Positions 11,021 to 19,605 of a stretch of DNA of 31,906 nucleotides are shown in pieces. The stretch lies in NCBI GenBank assembly GCA_050249515.1, contig JBFWQJ010000001.1, forward strand, positions 1 through 31,906, in the 5' to 3' direction. Under the pieces are notes generated by a model. That model made no database searches. It was not told where the DNA came from and saw nothing but the letters and a program-made list of their open reading frames with translations. Within the stretch, counting starts at the first letter, position 1, and each line of letters opens with the position of its first letter. Source of the DNA: Dehalococcoidia bacterium (GTDB taxonomy: Bacteria; Chloroflexota; Dehalococcoidia; UBA2979). The translations under genes and the position numbers were made by a program.

Positions 11021-13915
11021 CTACCGCTCGTCGCCCGGGCGCAGCCCGGACGCGCCGATGGGCGCACGGCCCTTGCGCTGCTGCCGCGGCCCGCGGCCGG
11101 CGCGCGAGGGCGTGCCGGGGCGCTCCACGCGCACGGCGCACGCCTTGAACTCCGGGATCCCGGACGGCAGGTCCAGCGCGTCATTCGTGAGGAAGTTCGC
11201 CGCCATCCCCTGCAGCTGCACGAACGGGACGAAGAGTTCGCCGCGCCGCATGCGCGGATCGACGTGCAACTCCGCGATGATCTCGCCGCGCCGGGACGCC
11301 AGTTGCACCTCGTCGCCGTCGGAGAAGCCGAGGCTCGCCGCGTCGTCCGGGTGCATGTCGACGGCGAGCACGGGGACGGTGCCGAGGAGGCCGGGCACCC
11401 GCCGCGTGATCACGCCGGTGTGCCAGTGGTACAGCGAGCGGCCGGTGATCAGCGTGTACGGGAAGCGCTTGCTCGGCAGCTCCGCGGCGACCGGGCCCTG
11501 CTCCACCGCGACGAACTTCCCGAGCCCGCGCGCGAACTCCGTCTCGAACAGCCTCGAGGTGCCGGGGTGGGTCGCGTTTGGGACGGGCCACTGCAGGCCG
11601 CCCTCGCGCTCCAGCCGCTCGTGAGAGAGCCCGGCGATGATCGGCATCAGGCTCGCCATCTCCTCGAACACGGCGTCGCTGTCCGCGTAGTCGAAGCCGC
11701 GCACGGGGCGCTCCAGGAGACGCAGCACGCGACGCGCGATCTCCGCGGTGATCGCCCAGTCCTCGCGCGCCTCGCCGGGCATCGGCAGGAACGGGCGCAC
11801 CATCTGCACGCGACGCTCCGAGTTGGTGAACGTGCCGGTCTTCTCCGCGAACGACGCGGCCGGCAGCACCACATCCGCCAGCTCCGCCGTCTCGTGCATG
11901 AAGATGTCCTGCACGACGAGGAAGTCGAGGCGCGCGAAGGCGTCGCGCGTGTGCGCGAGGTAGGGGTCGCTGATCAGCGGGTTCTCGCCGACGACGTACA
12001 TCGTCCGGAGGTGGCCCTCGATCATCTCCTCGATCATGTGCGTCGACTGGAGGCCGGGCGCCTGCGAGAGGTCGACGCCCCACGCCGCCTCGTACTTCGC
12101 GTGCGCGGGGCCGGTGTAGGGCTCGTAGCCGGCGAAGGTGTTGGGCAGGCAGCCGGAGTCGGAGCAGCCCTGCACGTTGTTCTGGCCGCGCAGCGGGGAG
12201 ATGCCGTTCCCCGGCCCGCCCACCTGCCCGGTGAGCAGCGCGAGGTTGATGAGCGAGCGCGCGTTGTCTGAGCCGTTGGTGTGCTGGGTGATCCCCATCC
12301 CCCAGATCATGCAAGAGCCGCGCTCCTCGCCGTCCAGGCCCGGGCGAGGCTTCGCGTAGAGCCGCGCGGCGCGACGGATCAGGTCCGCCGGGACGTTGCA
12401 GATGCGCTCGGCGTCCTCGGGCGTGACCTGCTCCACCACCCGCCGCCACGCCTCGAAGCCCTCCGTGCGCGCCTCCACGAAGTCGGGCGACCAGAGGCCC
12501 TCCTGCAGGATGACGTGCGCCATCGCGTTGAACAGCGCGACGTCCGTGCCGGGGCGCGGCTGCAGGTGGATCTCGGCCAGGTCGCACAGGTCGATGCGGA
12601 TCGGGTTGACGACGATGAGCGTCGCGTCACGGTCCTCGACGGCGCGCCGGAGCCGCGAGGCGATCACGGGGTGGTTCTGCGCGGTGTCGCTGCCGACGAC
12701 CAGCAGCGTGCCGGCGATGTCGTAGTCCGCGTACGAGTTGCTGGTCGCGCCCGACCCCACCATCTCCTGCAGCGCGACGACCGAGGGCGCATGGCACATC
12801 CGCGAGCAGTGGTCGATGTTGTTCGTGCCCATCACGGCGCGCACGAACTTCTGCATCACCCAGCCGTCCTCGTTCGTCGCCTTCGCGGACGCGATCCCGG
12901 CGAACGATCCGATCGAGTCGGCAAAGCGCCGCGCGACGAGGTCGAGCGCCTCGTCCCAGGTGGCGCGCTCCAGCGGGGCGCCCTTGCCGCCGCGGCGGAT
13001 CATCGGGTGGAGCAGGCGCTCCTCGGACTGCGCGAACTCCAGGCCGAACCGCCCCTTCACGCAGGTCATCCCCTGCGACGAGCCGTTGCCCGGCATGCCG
13101 TCCACCCACGCGATGCGCCCGTCCTCCACGCGCACGGACAGCCCGCAGCCCACGCCGCAGTACGGGCACGTGGTCTCCGTCACCGCGACGCGCGAGGGCG
13201 CCGGGACGACGGGGAGCGCGATCATGCCGGGGCGGTCGTTCTCCATGCGGTGCGAGGCGCTGGCGGGCGCGGCCTTCGGCATGAGCGCGCCGGTCGGGCA
13301 CTGCGAGACGCACTGGCCGCAGGAGGTGCAGATCGAGTCCTCCCACGCCGCATCGAACGCGACGCCGATGTGCGCCGTCGCGCCCCGCCCGTTGATCCCG
13401 ATCGCGCCGATGTGCTGCGTGCGCTGGCACGCGTCCACGCAGCGGCCGCAGAGGATGCAGTCCGCCATGTCCAGGCTGAAGAAGAGGTTGCTCTCATCCC
13501 TCGGCGCGCCGATGCCGGCGGCGCGCGGTCGCGGCACGTACGAGGAGACGTCGAGCCCGTGCGCGAGGGCGTGCTGCCGGGCGGTGCCGTGGCCGACGCC
13601 GTCGTCCGACATCCCGATCGTCAGGTCCAGCACGCCGCGACGGATGCGCTGCGCCCGCTCGCCGTCCGTGCGGATCGCCGTGCCCTCCGCGATCGGCGTG
13701 TGGCACGCGGCCACGAGGCGCGGCGAACCCTCGACCTCTACGAGACACGTCCGGCAGGCGCCCAGCGGGCCGCGCGCGTCCGGCTTGCACAGGTGCGGCA
13801 GGTCCGCCGCGGCCGCCTCGATCGCGTCGAGGATCATCGCGCCGCGCGCCACCCGCACCGCGCGGCCATCCACGGTGACGTCGAGGTACGGTGGGGAGGC
13901 AGGCACGCTAGTCAT
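11021..13915 (-). CDS. fdhF: Formate dehydrogenase alpha subunit (Mo/W-bisPGD, Cys-ligated) with N-terminal Fe-S domains
   Basis: 2Fe-2S motif HLC...GACRTC...C, CILCGRCVDAC, CTSCGQCVSQCP, CPYCGVGC...CVKG, active-site NIDHCSRMCHAPS, LRGQNNVQG, EKTGTFTNSERRVQ, TGRSLYHWHTG. Confidence 0.95.
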   Translation of the reverse strand: MTSVPASPPYLDVTVDGRAVRVARGAMILDAIEAAAADLPHLCKPDARGPLGACRTCLVEVEGSPRLVAACHTPIAEGTAIRTDGERAQRIRRGVLDLTIGMSDDGVGHGTARQHALAHGLDVSSYVPRPRAAGIGAPRDESNLFFSLDMADCILCGRCVDACQRTQHIGAIGINGRGATAHIGVAFDAAWEDSICTSCGQCVSQCPTGALMPKAAPASASHRMENDRPGMIALPVVPAPSRVAVTETTCPYCGVGCGLSVRVEDGRIAWVDGMPGNGSSQGMTCVKGRFGLEFAQSEERLLHPMIRRGGKGAPLERATWDEALDLVARRFADSIGSFAGIASAKATNEDGWVMQKFVRAVMGTNNIDHCSRMCHAPSVVALQEMVGSGATSNSYADYDIAGTLLVVGSDTAQNHPVIASRLRRAVEDRDATLIVVNPIRIDLCDLAEIHLQPRPGTDVALFNAMAHVILQEGLWSPDFVEARTEGFEAWRRVVEQVTPEDAERICNVPADLIRRAARLYAKPRPGLDGEERGSCMIWGMGITQHTNGSDNARSLINLALLTGQVGGPGNGISPLRGQNNVQGCSDSGCLPNTFAGYEPYTGPAHAKYEAAWGVDLSQAPGLQSTHMIEEMIEGHLRTMYVVGENPLISDPYLAHTRDAFARLDFLVVQDIFMHETAELADVVLPAASFAEKTGTFTNSERRVQMVRPFLPMPGEAREDWAITAEIARRVLRLLERPVRGFDYADSDAVFEEMASLMPIIAGLSHERLEREGGLQWPVPNATHPGTSRLFETEFARGLGKFVAVEQGPVAAELPSKRFPYTLITGRSLYHWHTGVITRRVPGLLGTVPVLAVDMHPDDAASLGFSDGDEVQLASRRGEIIAELHVDPRMRRGELFVPFVQLQGMAANFLTNDALDLPSGIPEFKACAVRVERPGTPSRAGRGPRQQRKGRAPIGASGLRPGDER

Positions 13916-14084
13916 CGATCGTCCTCACTGCTTCCAGCGCTGCGACCAGCCGCGCGTGCCGCTCCTGCACCCCGGCGCGCCGCGTGAAGTGCGCGGCGAT
14001 GTAGACCTCCTCGGCCGCGTCGGTCGCGGCGGCGATCAGCTCGCGCCAGGCATCCAGGGGCACCGTCACGGTCGCCGGCGTCAT
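13908..14084 (-). CDS. 58-aa hypothetical protein inside the FDH operon
   Basis: MTPATVTVPLDAWRELIAAATDAAEEVYIAAHFTRRAGVQERHARLVAALEAVRTIDD*. Its ATG overlaps the NuoF-like stop (ATGA) and its stop overlaps the FDH alpha start. Host-like codon use. Confidence 0.68.
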   Translation of the reverse strand: MTPATVTVPLDAWRELIAAATDAAEEVYIAAHFTRRAGVQERHARLVAALEAVRTIDD

Positions 14085-15571
14085 CGTGCGCTCCGTTCCG
14101 TGACGGCGGTCAGTTCGAAGGCGTCGGGGAACGCGGTCAGCGCGGACGTGACCGGGCGTCCCGCCATGCCGCCCAGCGCGCACAGCGAGGCCTCCGTCAT
14201 CACCTCGATCAGCGCGTCGATGCGCTCGCGGTGCGCGACCGGGTCTGCCAGCAGTTGCACCAGGCGCTGCGTTCCCTCGCGGCAGGGTGTGCACTCGCCG
14301 CAGGACTCGCGCGCGTTGTACGCCCCGAGGCTGCGCGTGATCCGTGCGATGTCCGCGCCGGGACCGAGCACCACCGTGCCGCCCGCGCCCAGCCCGCGCA
14401 TCTCGAGCGGCGTGTCGAACTCCTCGGGCAGCACGAAGCGGCCCGACGGCCCGCCCAGCAGCAGCGCCTGCACGCGCGCCGGCATCACGCCGGCCATCGC
14501 CAGCACGCCGGCCCACGTCATGTTGCCGTCCACGGGCACCTCGTACAGCCCGGGACGGGGGACGTCGCCGGACAGCGGCACGAGCTTGGTCGGCGGCGGC
14601 GGGCTGTCGAAGATCGTGGTGACGGCGCAGAGCGTCTCCGCGTTGTTGATCAGCGTCGGCCGGCCGAACAGCCCGATGTCCGTGGCGAACGGCGGCTTGT
14701 AGCGCGGCACGGGCCGCTCGCCCTCGATCGAGTTGAGGATCACCGACTCCTCGCCGCACACGTAGCCGCCCGCCCCGGAGCGGACGTGGATCGCGACGCC
14801 CGTCCCGCCCAGCGCCCGGCCACCGACGATCCCCGCCGCCTCCGCGTCCGCCAGCGCACGCTCGAAGGCGTCGCGGCCGTTCCGCGCCTGCCCGTTGATG
14901 TAGACGTAGGCCTCGCGGATGCCGGTGGCGCGACAGGCGATCAGGATGCCCTCGATCAGGCGGTGCGGGTCGCCCTCCAGCAGGTGACGGTCCTTGAAGA
15001 CGCCGGGCTCGCCCTCCTCGGCGTTGACCACCAGCACCTTCTCGTCGTGCTCGTGCGCGGCGAGCAGCCCCCACTTCGTGGCCACGGGGAAGTGCGCGCC
15101 GCCGCGCCCGGTCAGCCCCACGCCGCGCAGCACGTCGATGATCCGCGCGGGCGGCAGCGTGGCGGCGAGCGCGGCGGCGGCGTAGGCGCCCTGCGCCAGC
15201 ACGTCCGCCAGCGACCCGTCGTTCCGGCCGAGGCGCGCGGTCAGGCCGGCCTCGCCGCTGCCGGCGTACGCCTCGTCGCACGCGCCGCGCACGCAGGCGG
15301 CCAGCTCCTCAGGGACGCCGCGGTCGAGGCGCGCGAAGCGATGGCGGTGGCCCGGCCGCACCACGGTCGCCGCGGGCGCGGCCCAGCACGCGCCGTCGCA
15401 GGCCGCGTCCACCACGGGCACGCCGAGCGAGCCGGGGTCGATCGCGGCGGCATCCACGGCGTCGCCGCACGTCCCGCGATGCCGCAGCACACGCACCTCG
15501 TGCGGCTCGACGTGCGCCGTGACCTCGGCACGCAGGCGCAGCAGGGCGGGGGTGGGCATGGGGCCGCTCAC
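14081..15571 (-). CDS. NuoF-family NAD(H)/FMN-binding subunit (FdsB/HoxF-like) with N-terminal thioredoxin-like Fe-S region
   Basis: GRGGAHFP, NAEEGEPGVFKDR, GAGGYVCGEES, ESCGECTPCREG...SLCALG. N-terminal GTCG...CDGAC. GTG start overlaps the NuoE-like stop. Confidence 0.92.
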   Translation of the reverse strand: MSGPMPTPALLRLRAEVTAHVEPHEVRVLRHRGTCGDAVDAAAIDPGSLGVPVVDAACDGACWAAPAATVVRPGHRHRFARLDRGVPEELAACVRGACDEAYAGSGEAGLTARLGRNDGSLADVLAQGAYAAAALAATLPPARIIDVLRGVGLTGRGGAHFPVATKWGLLAAHEHDEKVLVVNAEEGEPGVFKDRHLLEGDPHRLIEGILIACRATGIREAYVYINGQARNGRDAFERALADAEAAGIVGGRALGGTGVAIHVRSGAGGYVCGEESVILNSIEGERPVPRYKPPFATDIGLFGRPTLINNAETLCAVTTIFDSPPPPTKLVPLSGDVPRPGLYEVPVDGNMTWAGVLAMAGVMPARVQALLLGGPSGRFVLPEEFDTPLEMRGLGAGGTVVLGPGADIARITRSLGAYNARESCGECTPCREGTQRLVQLLADPVAHRERIDALIEVMTEASLCALGGMAGRPVTSALTAFPDAFELTAVTERSAR

Positions 15572-16041
15572 GACGTCGCCTCCCCGGCGAGCGCGATCAG
15601 GCGCGCCGCCGTCAGGCGGCCGTGCAGGCGCTCCGCGGCGTCCACGGCGACGGGGGCGAGCGCGCACAGGAACTGGCAGTCGGCGGTGCGCACCCGCCCG
15701 GGCAGCGCACCCCCCGCCGCCTCGATCAGCGCGGCCGCGCCGGCGAGGTCGCACGAGACGCCGGTGCAGACGTGCCACGCCCCCGGCACCGGCCGCTCCA
15801 GCAGCAGCTCCGAGTAGCCCGTGGCGGTGGCGAAGACCTCCGAGACGGGGACGCGGACGTGCGCCGCGACCTGCTCGATCGCCGCGCGCGGGAGCCAGCC
15901 GAGGACGTGCTGCGCGGCCAGCAGCGCCGGGAGCAGCTGCGTGCGGCTGCGCGGCAGCGCCTCCACGGAGCGCGCGGCCGTCTGCAGGCGCTCGAGGTCG
16001 CCGGGCGCGTCCGGGTCGTACGGGGATGCCGCCGGTATCAT
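15568..16041 (-). CDS. NuoE-family [2Fe-2S] subunit (FdsG-like)
   Basis: LLPALLAAQ..LGWLP..AI..VA..V.VP.SEV..TATGY, CTGVSC...CQFLC..AP. TAGAAT -10 is 7 nt before ATG. Confidence 0.9.
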   Translation of the reverse strand: MIPAASPYDPDAPGDLERLQTAARSVEALPRSRTQLLPALLAAQHVLGWLPRAAIEQVAAHVRVPVSEVFATATGYSELLLERPVPGAWHVCTGVSCDLAGAAALIEAAGGALPGRVRTADCQFLCALAPVAVDAAERLHGRLTAARLIALAGEATS

Positions 16042-17995: not shown

Positions 17996-18478
17996 CTAGG
18001 ACAGCCGGACGTCGCCGAGGGGCGTGCGGGGCACGTCCTGGTGCGCGTTGACCATGTGCCGCGCGAGCGGGCCGAGGTCCGCGAAGACCTCCTGCATCTC
18101 CTGCTCGCCCACGCCCGCCTCGCGGAACGCGGTGCCCATGTGGCGGAGCCAGCGGCCGGCCGCGCGCTCGTCGATGAGGAACGGGAAGTGGCGCATCCGC
18201 AGACGCGGATGACCGTACAGCTCGCTGTAGCGCGGCTCGCCGCCCAGCCACTGCTCCAGGAACAGCTCCTGCTTCACCCGCCCCGCCTGCAGGTCCTCGG
18301 GGAACAGCGGGCGCAGGTCGGGGTCGGCCTCCACGAGGTCGTAGAAGCGCTCGACGACGCGCTCGATCGTCGGGCGGCCGCCGATGCGTTCCAGGAGGCC
18401 GGGCTGCCGCTGCACGGGGGCCCGCCCCGCGACGGGACGCGGGGCCTCGGGGGTGCCGGGGGCGGTCGATTCTTCCAC
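17996..18478 (-). CDS. Group II truncated haemoglobin (trHbO/GlbO-like)
   Basis: IGG..TI..VVERFY..V..DP.LRPLFP...Q..FL.QWLGG...YS..YGHPRLRMRH.PF.ID...A..WL..M. GTG start 6 nt after TACACT -10. Confidence 0.92.
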   Translation of the reverse strand: MEESTAPGTPEAPRPVAGRAPVQRQPGLLERIGGRPTIERVVERFYDLVEADPDLRPLFPEDLQAGRVKQELFLEQWLGGEPRYSELYGHPRLRMRHFPFLIDERAAGRWLRHMGTAFREAGVGEQEMQEVFADLGPLARHMVNAHQDVPRTPLGDVRLS

Positions 18479-18555
18479 GGTGCCAGTGTACCGGACTGGT
18501 ATCATCGCCTTCTGGTGCGGAAACCCCAACCCCGACCCGGTAGGCAGGCACGACC

Positions 18556-19605
18556 ATGACCAACGACACGCCTCAGGAGCTCGCGCCGAACATGCGCTGC
18601 CCGGAGACCGGGGAGTTCCCCACCGGGCCGGAGGTAGGCGAGCGCCTGCCGAACTTCACGCTGATGGACCAGCGCGGCCGCCCGGTCAACATCGAGGTGG
18701 AGCGCGCAGGGCAGCGTGCCCTCGTCGTCTTCCACCGCTCCGCCCGGTGGTGACCGTACTGCCGCACGCAGCTCGTGCAGCTGCAGCAGAACCTCGAGAC
18801 GTTCGCCGCCGCCGGGATCAAGGTCTTCGCGATCTCGTATGACCCCGTGGACGTGCTGGCGAAGTTCGCGGACGAGTTCGGCATCACCTACCCGCTGCTC
18901 TACGACCAGGGCTCCGTGGTGATGAAGCGCTTCGGCATCCTCAACACGATGATCCGCGAGGACGAGGACTACTACGGCATCCCCTACCCCGGCATCTACG
19001 CCGTGGGCGAGGACGGGCTGGTCACCGAGAAGTCGTTCTTCCGCTACTACCGCGTGCGCCCGTCCGCCCAGTCCGTGCTGAAGGACCTCTTCGACGTGGA
19101 CTTCGACACGGGCGGAGACCCGTTCGTCGAAGCGGCGGGGGAGGGCGCCCGCGTCTCAGCGGTGCTGGCGGCAGAGGGGCTGGTGTTCATGCAGCGTGAC
19201 CCGCTGTACGTCCGCCTGGCCCTCGACCCCGGCCTGCACATCTACCGCGGCCCGGTGCCGGAGGGGTTCATCGCGACCGAGGTCACGGTGACGGGCCCGG
19301 AGGGGCTGGAGGTGGACGCGCCGGTGTTCCCGGACGCCCACCCGTTCCGCGTCGCCGGCATCCCGCACGAGTTCCAGGTGATGGAAGGCAACGTGGAGAT
19401 CGAGGTGCCGATCTCGTGGACGAAGCCGGACAACACCCCGGACGCGGCGAAGGTGGTGCCGGTGGACATCACCGTGCGGTACCAGGCGTGCGACGAGCAG
19501 CAGTGCTTCATCCCTCGGACGGTGGAGCTGCACATGGACCTGCCGGTGGGCACGCTGTACCGCGCCCGCCCGGCCGCGCCGCCCCCGGACGCACCGGCGA
19601 GATAG
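18556..19605 (+). CDS. Predicted selenoprotein: AhpC/TSA (Prx-like) redoxin with UxxC, fused to a DsbD N-terminal-like domain; TGA at 18751-18753 read as Sec
   Basis: Track ORFs 18556-18753 and 18775-19605 are in the same frame. Read-through gives LVVFHRSARW-U-PYC-RTQL at the CxxC position of the Trx fold. C-terminal YQACDEQQCFIP resembles the nDsbD active-site loop. Confidence 0.88.
18754..18786 (+). promoter_or_regulatory. Candidate SECIS hairpin immediately 3' of the UGA
   Basis: GCACG(18764-68)/CGTGC(18774-78) stem with loop CAGCT starting 16 nt after UGA. Lower CTGC(18759-62)/GCAG(18783-86) pairing. Confidence 0.5.

Follow-up and report, generated by a model that had tools for sequence, protein, structure and literature searches.

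A predicted selenoprotein of Dehalococcoidia in which a UxxC redoxin is fused to an nDsbD-like domain

The locus and its gene

The stretch of DNA analyzed here, hereafter the window, comprises positions 1 to 31,906 of contig JBFWQJ010000001.1 from a Dehalococcoidia bacterium (GenBank assembly GCA_050249515.1). Positions 18556-19605 of its plus strand hold a gene with a single in-frame UGA codon, which is likely to encode one selenoprotein of 349 residues with two redox centers, whose function we infer from its domains: a selenocysteine (Sec)-containing redoxin domain and a domain resembling nDsbD, the alpha domain of the DsbD/ScsB membrane proteins. The gene forms a single frame from the ATG at 18556 to the TAG at 19603-19605, and the sole internal stop, the TGA at 18751-18753, is codon 66, lying in the context F-H-R-S-A-R-W-U-P-Y-C-R-T-Q-L. 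An in-frame TAG at 18541-18543, 12 nucleotides 5' of the ATG, rules out an N-terminal extension; it thus fixes the N-terminus of the product, which begins MTNDTPQE, and excludes a hidden signal peptide. An initial annotation of this DNA, made from its letters and open reading frames, had placed an in-frame TGA at the first redox position of a W-U-P-Y-C motif, with coding sequence on either side. Both statements hold: homologs have cysteine at the position of the TGA, the Pfam AhpC-TSA and DsbD_N domains flank the stop, and orthologs span the whole length. The features of the locus are as follows.

18556..19605, plus strand: complete selenoprotein gene of 349 codons and a TAG stop; one frame with one TGA, full-length orthologs and a full-length structural model
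18634..19029, plus strand: redoxin (AhpC/TSA-fold) domain, residues 27-158; PF00578 match with E 1.3e-25, and Foldseek matches
18748..18786, plus strand: block of extreme nucleotide conservation spanning the UGA and the hairpin; codon-pair identity, and contigs of other organisms that match this core alone
18751..18753, plus strand: UGA codon 66, predicted to be read as selenocysteine (W-U-P-Y-C); TGA kept in orthologs and distant relatives
18760..18762, plus strand: Cys69, second residue of the UxxC center; invariant in alignment A2; its counterpart is the peroxidatic Cys in AhpE/PrxQ and the second CxxC cysteine in ResA
18768..18784, plus strand: hairpin of the selenocysteine insertion sequence (SECIS) type, stem 18768-18773 with 18779-18784 and loop 18774-18778 (C-G-U-G-C); pairing, compensatory changes and agreement with published constraints
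19003..19605, plus strand: the assembly's truncated gene call P0015, 200 amino acids (aa), with a GTG start at Val150; 100% identity, 57% coverage
19192..19524, plus strand: nDsbD-like immunoglobulin-fold domain, residues 213-323; PF11412 match above the cut-off, domain model and PDB fold matches
19489..19506, plus strand: Cys312-D-E-Q-Q-Cys317, the second redox center; both Cys invariant

That standard annotation would mishandle such a gene had been foreseen, and the assembly's own call is indeed a fragment, P0015, from which the active-site half of the gene is left out. Similar truncations pervade the databases: 98 of the best 120 database clusters and about 90 of 147 representatives at 50% identity are N-truncated, and most database relatives are calls of 255-280 aa that start with M-Q-L-Q-Q or M-T-Q-L-V-E-L-Q, directly past the UGA. 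The UniProt/AlphaFold DB entries A0A2W1ADZ9, A0A2E9GTI7 and A0A359LPD6, labeled 'Peroxiredoxin' or 'Alkyl hydroperoxide reductase...', align with the query only from residue 75 on, and here the same UGA truncation has probably been carried into public protein databases. For the Cys forms, the AhpC/TSA plus DsbD_N architecture has already been recorded by automatic annotation.

Conservation of the UGA codon and the selenocysteine machinery

A six-frame search of 60 related genomes recovered full-length orthologs in 22 of the 37 genomes of the same family, the window's own being counted, and none in 24 sampled genomes that belong to other families within the class. An in-frame TGA is present in 21 of these 22 orthologs; among the 20 ortholog loci that we read, it falls exactly at W-U-P-[Y/F]-C in 19, the remaining locus (L036) having TGT, a Cys codon. 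Likewise, all nine of the distant truncated representatives for which DNA was fetched have a TGA at the same codon and encode the missing N-terminal part upstream of it. Full-length Cys homologs of 330-347 aa are found in metagenomes (e.g. P0017-P0043), so that the Cys counterparts sought by the initial annotation are seen both in these proteins and in L036.

The genome also encodes the machinery that this annotation had proposed to look for. In the assembly (357 contigs, 2.95 Mb, 90.7% complete) SelA, SelB and SelD are detected at 540, 305 and 240 bits respectively, all above the curated cut-offs and with the selD match cut by a contig end, together with a tRNA-Sec with the anticodon TCA that likewise scores above its curated cut-off. 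Of the 21 genomes in the family whose ortholog has the TGA, 19 yielded a selA match; the other two are only 75-80% complete. No selA was found in the sole genome with the Cys-form ortholog, a single contig that is 94% complete. The concern that the TGA might be a misread TGC or TGT is answered by two sequencing runs, one from a landfill, which is probably the source sample, and an unrelated one from wastewater; contigs of both cover 18751-18753 with no listed difference there.

These observations bear on whether the TGA could be a real stop, in which case the locus would represent a pseudogene, an assembly error or two small genes of 65 and 276 aa. Gene callers do treat it as such, both in P0015 and in about 100 truncated database entries, and the stability of the downstream hairpin in the single sequence is ordinary. 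Against this, the TGA occupies one and the same codon in 28 independent assemblies and is replaced by Cys in homologs, the frame and the sequence are conserved across it, it is kept in contigs of two unrelated studies, its presence tracks that of selA, it is followed by a covarying hairpin (see below), and in the structural model neither fragment would constitute a complete thioredoxin fold. A genuine stop is hence highly improbable, and for practical purposes one can dismiss sequencing error, a pseudogene and a pair of separate genes. An altered genetic code, in which all UGA codons are read as a standard amino acid, would account for the open frame alone and is even more remote. It is excluded because six of the 20 orthologs end their own frame with TGA; moreover, long genes of the window with a Pfam match over most of their length are uninterrupted frames under table 11, in which TGA is a stop, the genome has tRNA-Sec with SelA, SelB and SelD, and the residue aligned in homologs is Cys.

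A SECIS-type hairpin downstream of the UGA

The hairpin at 18768-18784 begins 14 nucleotides past the UGA and has a 6-bp stem capped by the loop C-G-U-G-C; in variants that form the loop-closing C:G pair the stem is of 7 bp and the loop is G-U-G or G-U-U. A hairpin at SECIS distance had been pointed out in the initial annotation, and its position, its covariation and its agreement with all of the published constraints for bacterial SECIS elements (PMC13188914) bear this out:

Apical loop: 3-9 nucleotides in the model, 3-5 here (C-G-U-G-C or G-U-G)
Upper stem: 4-16 bp in the model, 6-7 bp here
G in the first two loop positions: required in the model, present here and followed by U
Distance from UGA to loop: 16-37 nucleotides in the model, 20-21 here
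Minimum free energy: -7.5 kcal/mol or lower in the model, -9.0 kcal/mol here

The region is also distinguished by its pattern of conservation. The proteins encoded by the 19 Sec orthologs share 44-82% identity, yet their codons 67-76 are nearly frozen at synonymous sites. Among 79 conserved 4- or 6-fold degenerate columns, codon-pair identity is at least 0.8 in five, all of which lie within codons 67-76, as against a mean of 0.47 over the other 73 conserved degenerate columns; the best 10-codon window of synonymous conservation starts at codon 67. RNAalifold detected no covariation in the 19 close orthologs, because the stem is invariant among them. When nine distant Sec forms are added (28 sequences), all 168 cells of the stem pair, with both-sided changes in four of the six pairs (G-C to C-G, G-C to A-U, C-G to U-A and C-G to G-U; seven cells in all), and loop positions G25-U26 are invariant throughout. 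In a control with 500 shuffles, the observed value was never attained on four of the five measures and was attained by two shuffles on the fifth, 'further pair types'; sliding the 3' partner by 1-3 columns reduces pairing to 2-52%. The Cys ortholog L036 has lost the hairpin. Similarly, every Cys form in alignment A2 has a different peptide here, examples being T-H-L-A-S-F-Q and T-Q-V-I-E-M-Q, and no such peptide is able to spell the stem. The window's own sequence could also adopt a longer, imperfect stem-loop instead, and a search against Rfam gave no relevant match. Taken as a whole, the sequence comparisons make the gene at 18556-19605 almost certainly a genuine selenoprotein gene.

The core of this region also recurs by itself in environmental DNA. 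Contigs that belong to other organisms, from metagenomes of landfill, estuary and groundwater, share with the window just a 38-nucleotide core at 18748-18786, which encompasses W-U-x-x-C and the hairpin, and depth spikes there to about 219 over a background of about 6-10. The flanking loose ends of these contigs encode F-F-R-S-A-D or F-N-R-S-A-D, a motif of the secreted relatives.

Domain architecture and affinities

Both domains can be assigned to their folds with very high confidence. The N-terminal domain matches the Pfam AhpC-TSA family with 90.2 bits against a cut-off of 26, and a full-length AlphaFold2 model built with 34 family sequences has a mean predicted local distance difference test (pLDDT) score of 90.9 and a predicted template modeling (TM) score of 0.86. 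An independently predicted full-length homolog from AlphaFold DB superposes over both domains with a TM-score of 0.83 by query. The top Foldseek matches of the N-terminal domain are BcpB, AhpE, Bcp4 and ResA, with PrxQ also among the closest solved relatives; BcpB, AhpE and PrxQ show 24-28% identity and TM-scores of up to 0.88 by target. In overall sequence the domain is closer to the BCP/AhpE peroxiredoxins than to ResA, TlpA and CcmG. However, a profile alignment with AhpE pairs Pro38 with R61, Thr42 with U66, the peroxidatic Cys45 with C69 and Arg116 with P145, the identity of Arg116 being confirmed by an R116A mutant chain in the alignment output. Three of the four peroxiredoxin catalytic residues are accordingly absent, R61 and P145 being invariant in the family, and of the strict peroxiredoxin signature (P-x-x-x-T/S-x-x-C with a conserved Arg) the position of the Cys alone is kept. 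In contrast, the W-C-x-x-C motif of the ResA/TlpA/CcmG proteins, which share the redoxin fold, aligns residue by residue with W-U-P-Y-C, although those are membrane-anchored or secreted single-domain proteins with Cys only. The invariant redox residues in alignment A2 are U/C66, C69, C312 and C317. The NCBIfam selenoprotein models SelL_rel_redox (38.4 against 120) and WAxxUGC_long (23.5 against 300) scored below their cut-offs, and none of the curated NCBIfam selenoprotein models reached its own.

The C-terminal domain, which the initial annotation had likened to nDsbD on account of its C-D-E-Q-Q-C loop (residues 312-317), proves to be of that type. It matches Pfam DsbD_N (PF11412) over residues 213-323 with E 1.1e-7 and 32.4-34.8 bits against a cut-off of 25, and when modeled alone (38 sequences) has a pLDDT of 91.9. 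All of its top 17 PDB fold matches are nDsbD of Neisseria and E. coli or the N-terminal domain of ScsB (TM-score 0.44-0.66, identity 12-18%). As in the alpha domains of DsbD and ScsB, an immunoglobulin-like beta-sandwich bears a Cys pair within a Y-Q-x-C...C-x-P-P/x motif, and Q310, C312, C317 and P320 do not vary among 34 family members or among 38 C-terminal domains, distant secreted forms included. The cysteines are separated by four residues here, and by five in E. coli nDsbD (C103-x5-C109). This DsbD_N domain is the only one in the genome. The resemblance ends at the context: nDsbD is periplasmic and N-terminal in a DsbD/ScsB membrane protein, whereas here the domain sits C-terminal to a redoxin in a chain with neither a signal peptide nor the membrane tether of DsbD, and the DsbD_TM gene lies on a different contig. 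The thioredoxin-fold partners to which nDsbD becomes linked through mixed disulfides are cDsbD, CcmG and DsbC; electrons also pass from it to redoxin-fold proteins, CcmG being an example. Three such mixed-disulfide complexes, 1VRS, 1Z5Y and 1JZD, are among the top 17 fold matches, and CcmG, a ResA/TlpA-type protein, is a natural electron acceptor of nDsbD (1Z5Y).

Several relatives depart from this organization. The same genome has a paralog (G000:C238:45-704, minus strand) that is uninterrupted by a stop and 44% identical to residues 10-231; it may belong to a W-C-x-x-C subfamily of about 300 aa (P0110, P0112). In P0110, the one member of this subfamily that was read, the C-terminal domain is shorter and the Y-Q-A-C...C pair has been lost. 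In the metagenomic protein P0125 (616 aa) the entire redoxin plus DsbD_N module occurs twice in tandem; the call begins directly past the UGA position of the first copy, and the second copy has W-S-S-Y-C. Not counted among these relatives is the sequence designated Unknown_3, which was considered and rejected; it has three Cys residues, a CxxC motif among them.

A possible intramolecular relay

The combination of these features suggests a mechanism for the protein. SelB carrying Sec-tRNA(Sec) would bind the hairpin 14 nucleotides past the UGA, with its invariant loop G-U, and Sec would be inserted at codon 66 in place of termination. The N-terminal domain would then present a BCP/AhpE-like peroxiredoxin scaffold whose active site has been turned into a ResA/TlpA-type W-U-x-x-C center. 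An exposed U66 selenolate could attack an oxidized substrate, either a disulfide or a sulfenate, and C69 would resolve the adduct to yield a selenenylsulfide. The C312/C317 pair might in turn exchange with the U66/C69 center, in the way that nDsbD does with its thioredoxin-fold partners, resulting in a built-in two-step relay that would finally be recharged by the cytoplasmic thioredoxin system. By analogy with nDsbD, we lean towards such an inter-domain relay. The direction of electron flow could be either of two, with the redoxin resembling cDsbD and lying upstream of the alpha-like domain, or resembling CcmG and lying downstream of it. A complex prediction with the two domains of a natural Cys homolog (P0018) gave a score of 0.00, which counts neither way.

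A comparable pairing comes from the ScsB to PrxL / TlpA-PprX pathway of Caulobacter, in which a DsbD-family alpha domain maintains Prx-like and thioredoxin-like proteins in the reduced state (Cho et al. 2012, PMC3322552). PrxL, like the N-terminal domain described here, lacks the conserved peroxiredoxin residues, and itself shows no peroxidase activity (PMC3322552). Unlike the present protein, which is a fused chain with one Sec center and no export signal, the components of the Caulobacter pathway are separate periplasmic proteins with Cys only.

Alternatively, the N-terminal domain could be a peroxidase, with U66 reducing hydroperoxides in the manner of glutathione peroxidase, or with C69 as a Prx-like peroxidatic residue, the partner residue resolving in each case and the nDsbD-like domain being a built-in reductant. 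In keeping with this, the nearest solved structures and sequences are the peroxiredoxins BcpB, AhpE and PrxQ, C69 aligns with the peroxidatic Cys, and the automatic UniProt name of relatives is 'thioredoxin-dependent peroxiredoxin'. Rare S-x-x-C and W-x-x-C variants keep just Cys69, the former resembling the T/S-x-x-C of peroxiredoxins, and in Caulobacter a DsbD-family protein feeds a periplasmic peroxiredoxin pathway (PMC3322552). What speaks against it is that the invariant Arg61, Sec/Cys66 and Pro145 stand where peroxiredoxins have their catalytic Pro, Thr and Arg, that the motif matches the ResA/TlpA W-C-x-x-C, and that the Caulobacter Prx-like protein without those residues had no detectable peroxidase activity (PMC3322552). 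We regard peroxidase function as rather unlikely, and a reductase rather than a peroxidase as the somewhat better-favored assignment.

Cellular location

In line with the initial annotation, which had noted neither a signal peptide nor a membrane domain, the 349-aa product contains no signal peptide, hydrophobic leader or membrane segment, and its N-terminus is fixed by the upstream TAG. Neither a hydrophobic nor a twin-arginine leader was found in any of 20 orthologs or in any Cys form of the clade. This absence of a recognizable export signal indicates that the protein probably resides in the cytoplasm. That its DsbD-alpha-type domain works there as the dedicated partner of a Sec redoxin in one polypeptide is a more tentative proposal.

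The protein might instead work outside the cytoplasm, through unrecognized export; it would then be the soluble gamma-alpha unit in a split DsbD, recharged by a CcdA-type membrane protein. Relatives with the same domains, Sec forms included, do bear classical signal peptides, contig C196 carries a DsbD_TM/CcdA-type gene, and the genome's sole DsbD_N domain is that of this gene. Moreover, free-standing alpha domains that work with CcdA have been proposed earlier (PMC3322552). Nevertheless, the TAG 12 nucleotides 5' of the ATG fixes the N-terminus, 20 of 20 orthologs and the Cys forms of the clade are leader-free, and the CcdA gene is unlinked to the selenoprotein gene, all of which render an extracytoplasmic role improbable. 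The match on C196 (G000:C196:4187-4885, plus strand; L042/L043), the sole DsbD_TM/CcdA-type match in the genome, has its two hidden Markov model segments permuted along the DNA, with positions 125-192 before 7-101; it could represent two adjacent genes or one rearranged gene.

Several observations weigh against the overall reading, that of a cytoplasmic selenoprotein with a relay between two redox centers. To our knowledge, all characterized nDsbD-type domains act outside the cytoplasm, and a cytoplasmic role would be without precedent. Many two-domain homologs in other lineages carry classical signal peptides, and among the Sec forms these are present in L044, L045 and L053 and absent from L046, L048, L049 and L051; a cytoplasmic location would thus be a trait of certain clades and not of the whole family. 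A few homologs, with motifs classified by hmmalign, have Ser or Trp at position 66 and retain Cys69, which suggests that Cys69 is the universal residue, as in peroxiredoxins. The single-sequence folding energy of the hairpin is no better than that of shuffles (z 0.08 to -1.0) in a GC-rich context. Lastly, no conserved partner gene adjoins the selenoprotein gene.

In the signal-peptide-bearing relatives P0133, P0145, P0170 and P0209, position 66 or 69 is occupied by Trp, Ser or another residue (the motifs being W-x-x-C, S-x-x-C and C-x-x-S), and the first redox position is hence not universally needed in the wider family.

Genomic neighborhood

A gene for a bacterial-like (truncated) globin (PF01152, E 4e-28; window 17996-18529, minus strand) is divergently oriented to the selenoprotein gene, with about 26 nucleotides between the start codons. 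This neighbor stands beside the ortholog in eight of 19 other loci, some of which show about 45% identity, and the downstream purU is conserved to a similar degree; this conservation may be ordinary synteny among related genomes. Further away, the window encodes a formate-dehydrogenase-type molybdopterin oxidoreductase of 964 aa with 2Fe-2S and 4Fe-4S domains and, alongside, a NuoF-like subunit (11021-13915 and 14081-15778, both minus strand). The organism decodes Sec, yet the frame of the oxidoreductase is free of TGA codons, and the enzyme is presumably of the Cys type.

Relation to known selenoproteins and implications

Prx-like UxxC selenoproteins have been catalogued since 2005-2008 (Zhang and Gladyshev). 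The 'Prx-like thiol:disulfide oxidoreductase' selenoproteins, which are PF00578 proteins with UxxC, are described in PMC1794560, PMC9312934 and PMC13188914, in agreement with the statement of the initial annotation that such proteins were already known. The present protein shares with these UxxC/UxxU proteins the AhpC/TSA fold, Sec as the first residue of UxxC, the existence of Cys homologs and a SECIS element directly past the UGA, and differs from them in its fused nDsbD-like domain, which is not mentioned in PMC2398784 or PMC1794560. By eye, the 2008 'Prx-like 1' list of the GOS (Global Ocean Sampling) data includes W-U-P-Y/F-C reads, one with the same N-terminal region, and another GOS 'Prx-like 1' read combines a signal peptide with the first part of the same C-terminal domain. 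The term 'DsbD' does not occur in PMC2398784 or PMC1794560, and in PMC13188914 it is used solely for the TsoB rhodanese fusion. In the literature searched, we came across neither a selenoprotein fused to an nDsbD-type domain nor an nDsbD-type domain that stays unexported. The gene therefore falls within a class of selenoproteins that was already known; what is unusual about it is the fused DsbD-type domain and the apparently cytoplasmic location.

The Dehalococcoidia, to which the source names of the nearest homologs assign this organism, are among the most selenoprotein-rich bacteria (PMC13326102), and this gene is a well-supported addition to the selenoproteome of Dehalococcoidia-type Chloroflexota, with a SECIS element that has real covariation support. 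It does not overturn current understanding. It also furnishes a rule by which hundreds of database entries might be mended, namely a TGA within W-U-x-x-C followed by the conserved hairpin with the loop G-U. More generally, it points to a putative pairing of a Sec redoxin with an nDsbD-type domain that is apparently intracellular. The wider family includes both secreted and non-secreted proteins, mostly Sec-containing and almost all mis-annotated. If the proposal is true, the protein would amount to a stand-alone 'gamma-alpha' unit of the DsbD electron relay, one that either preceded DsbD or was derived from it, and would offer a natural system of selenenylsulfide/disulfide exchange within a single chain.

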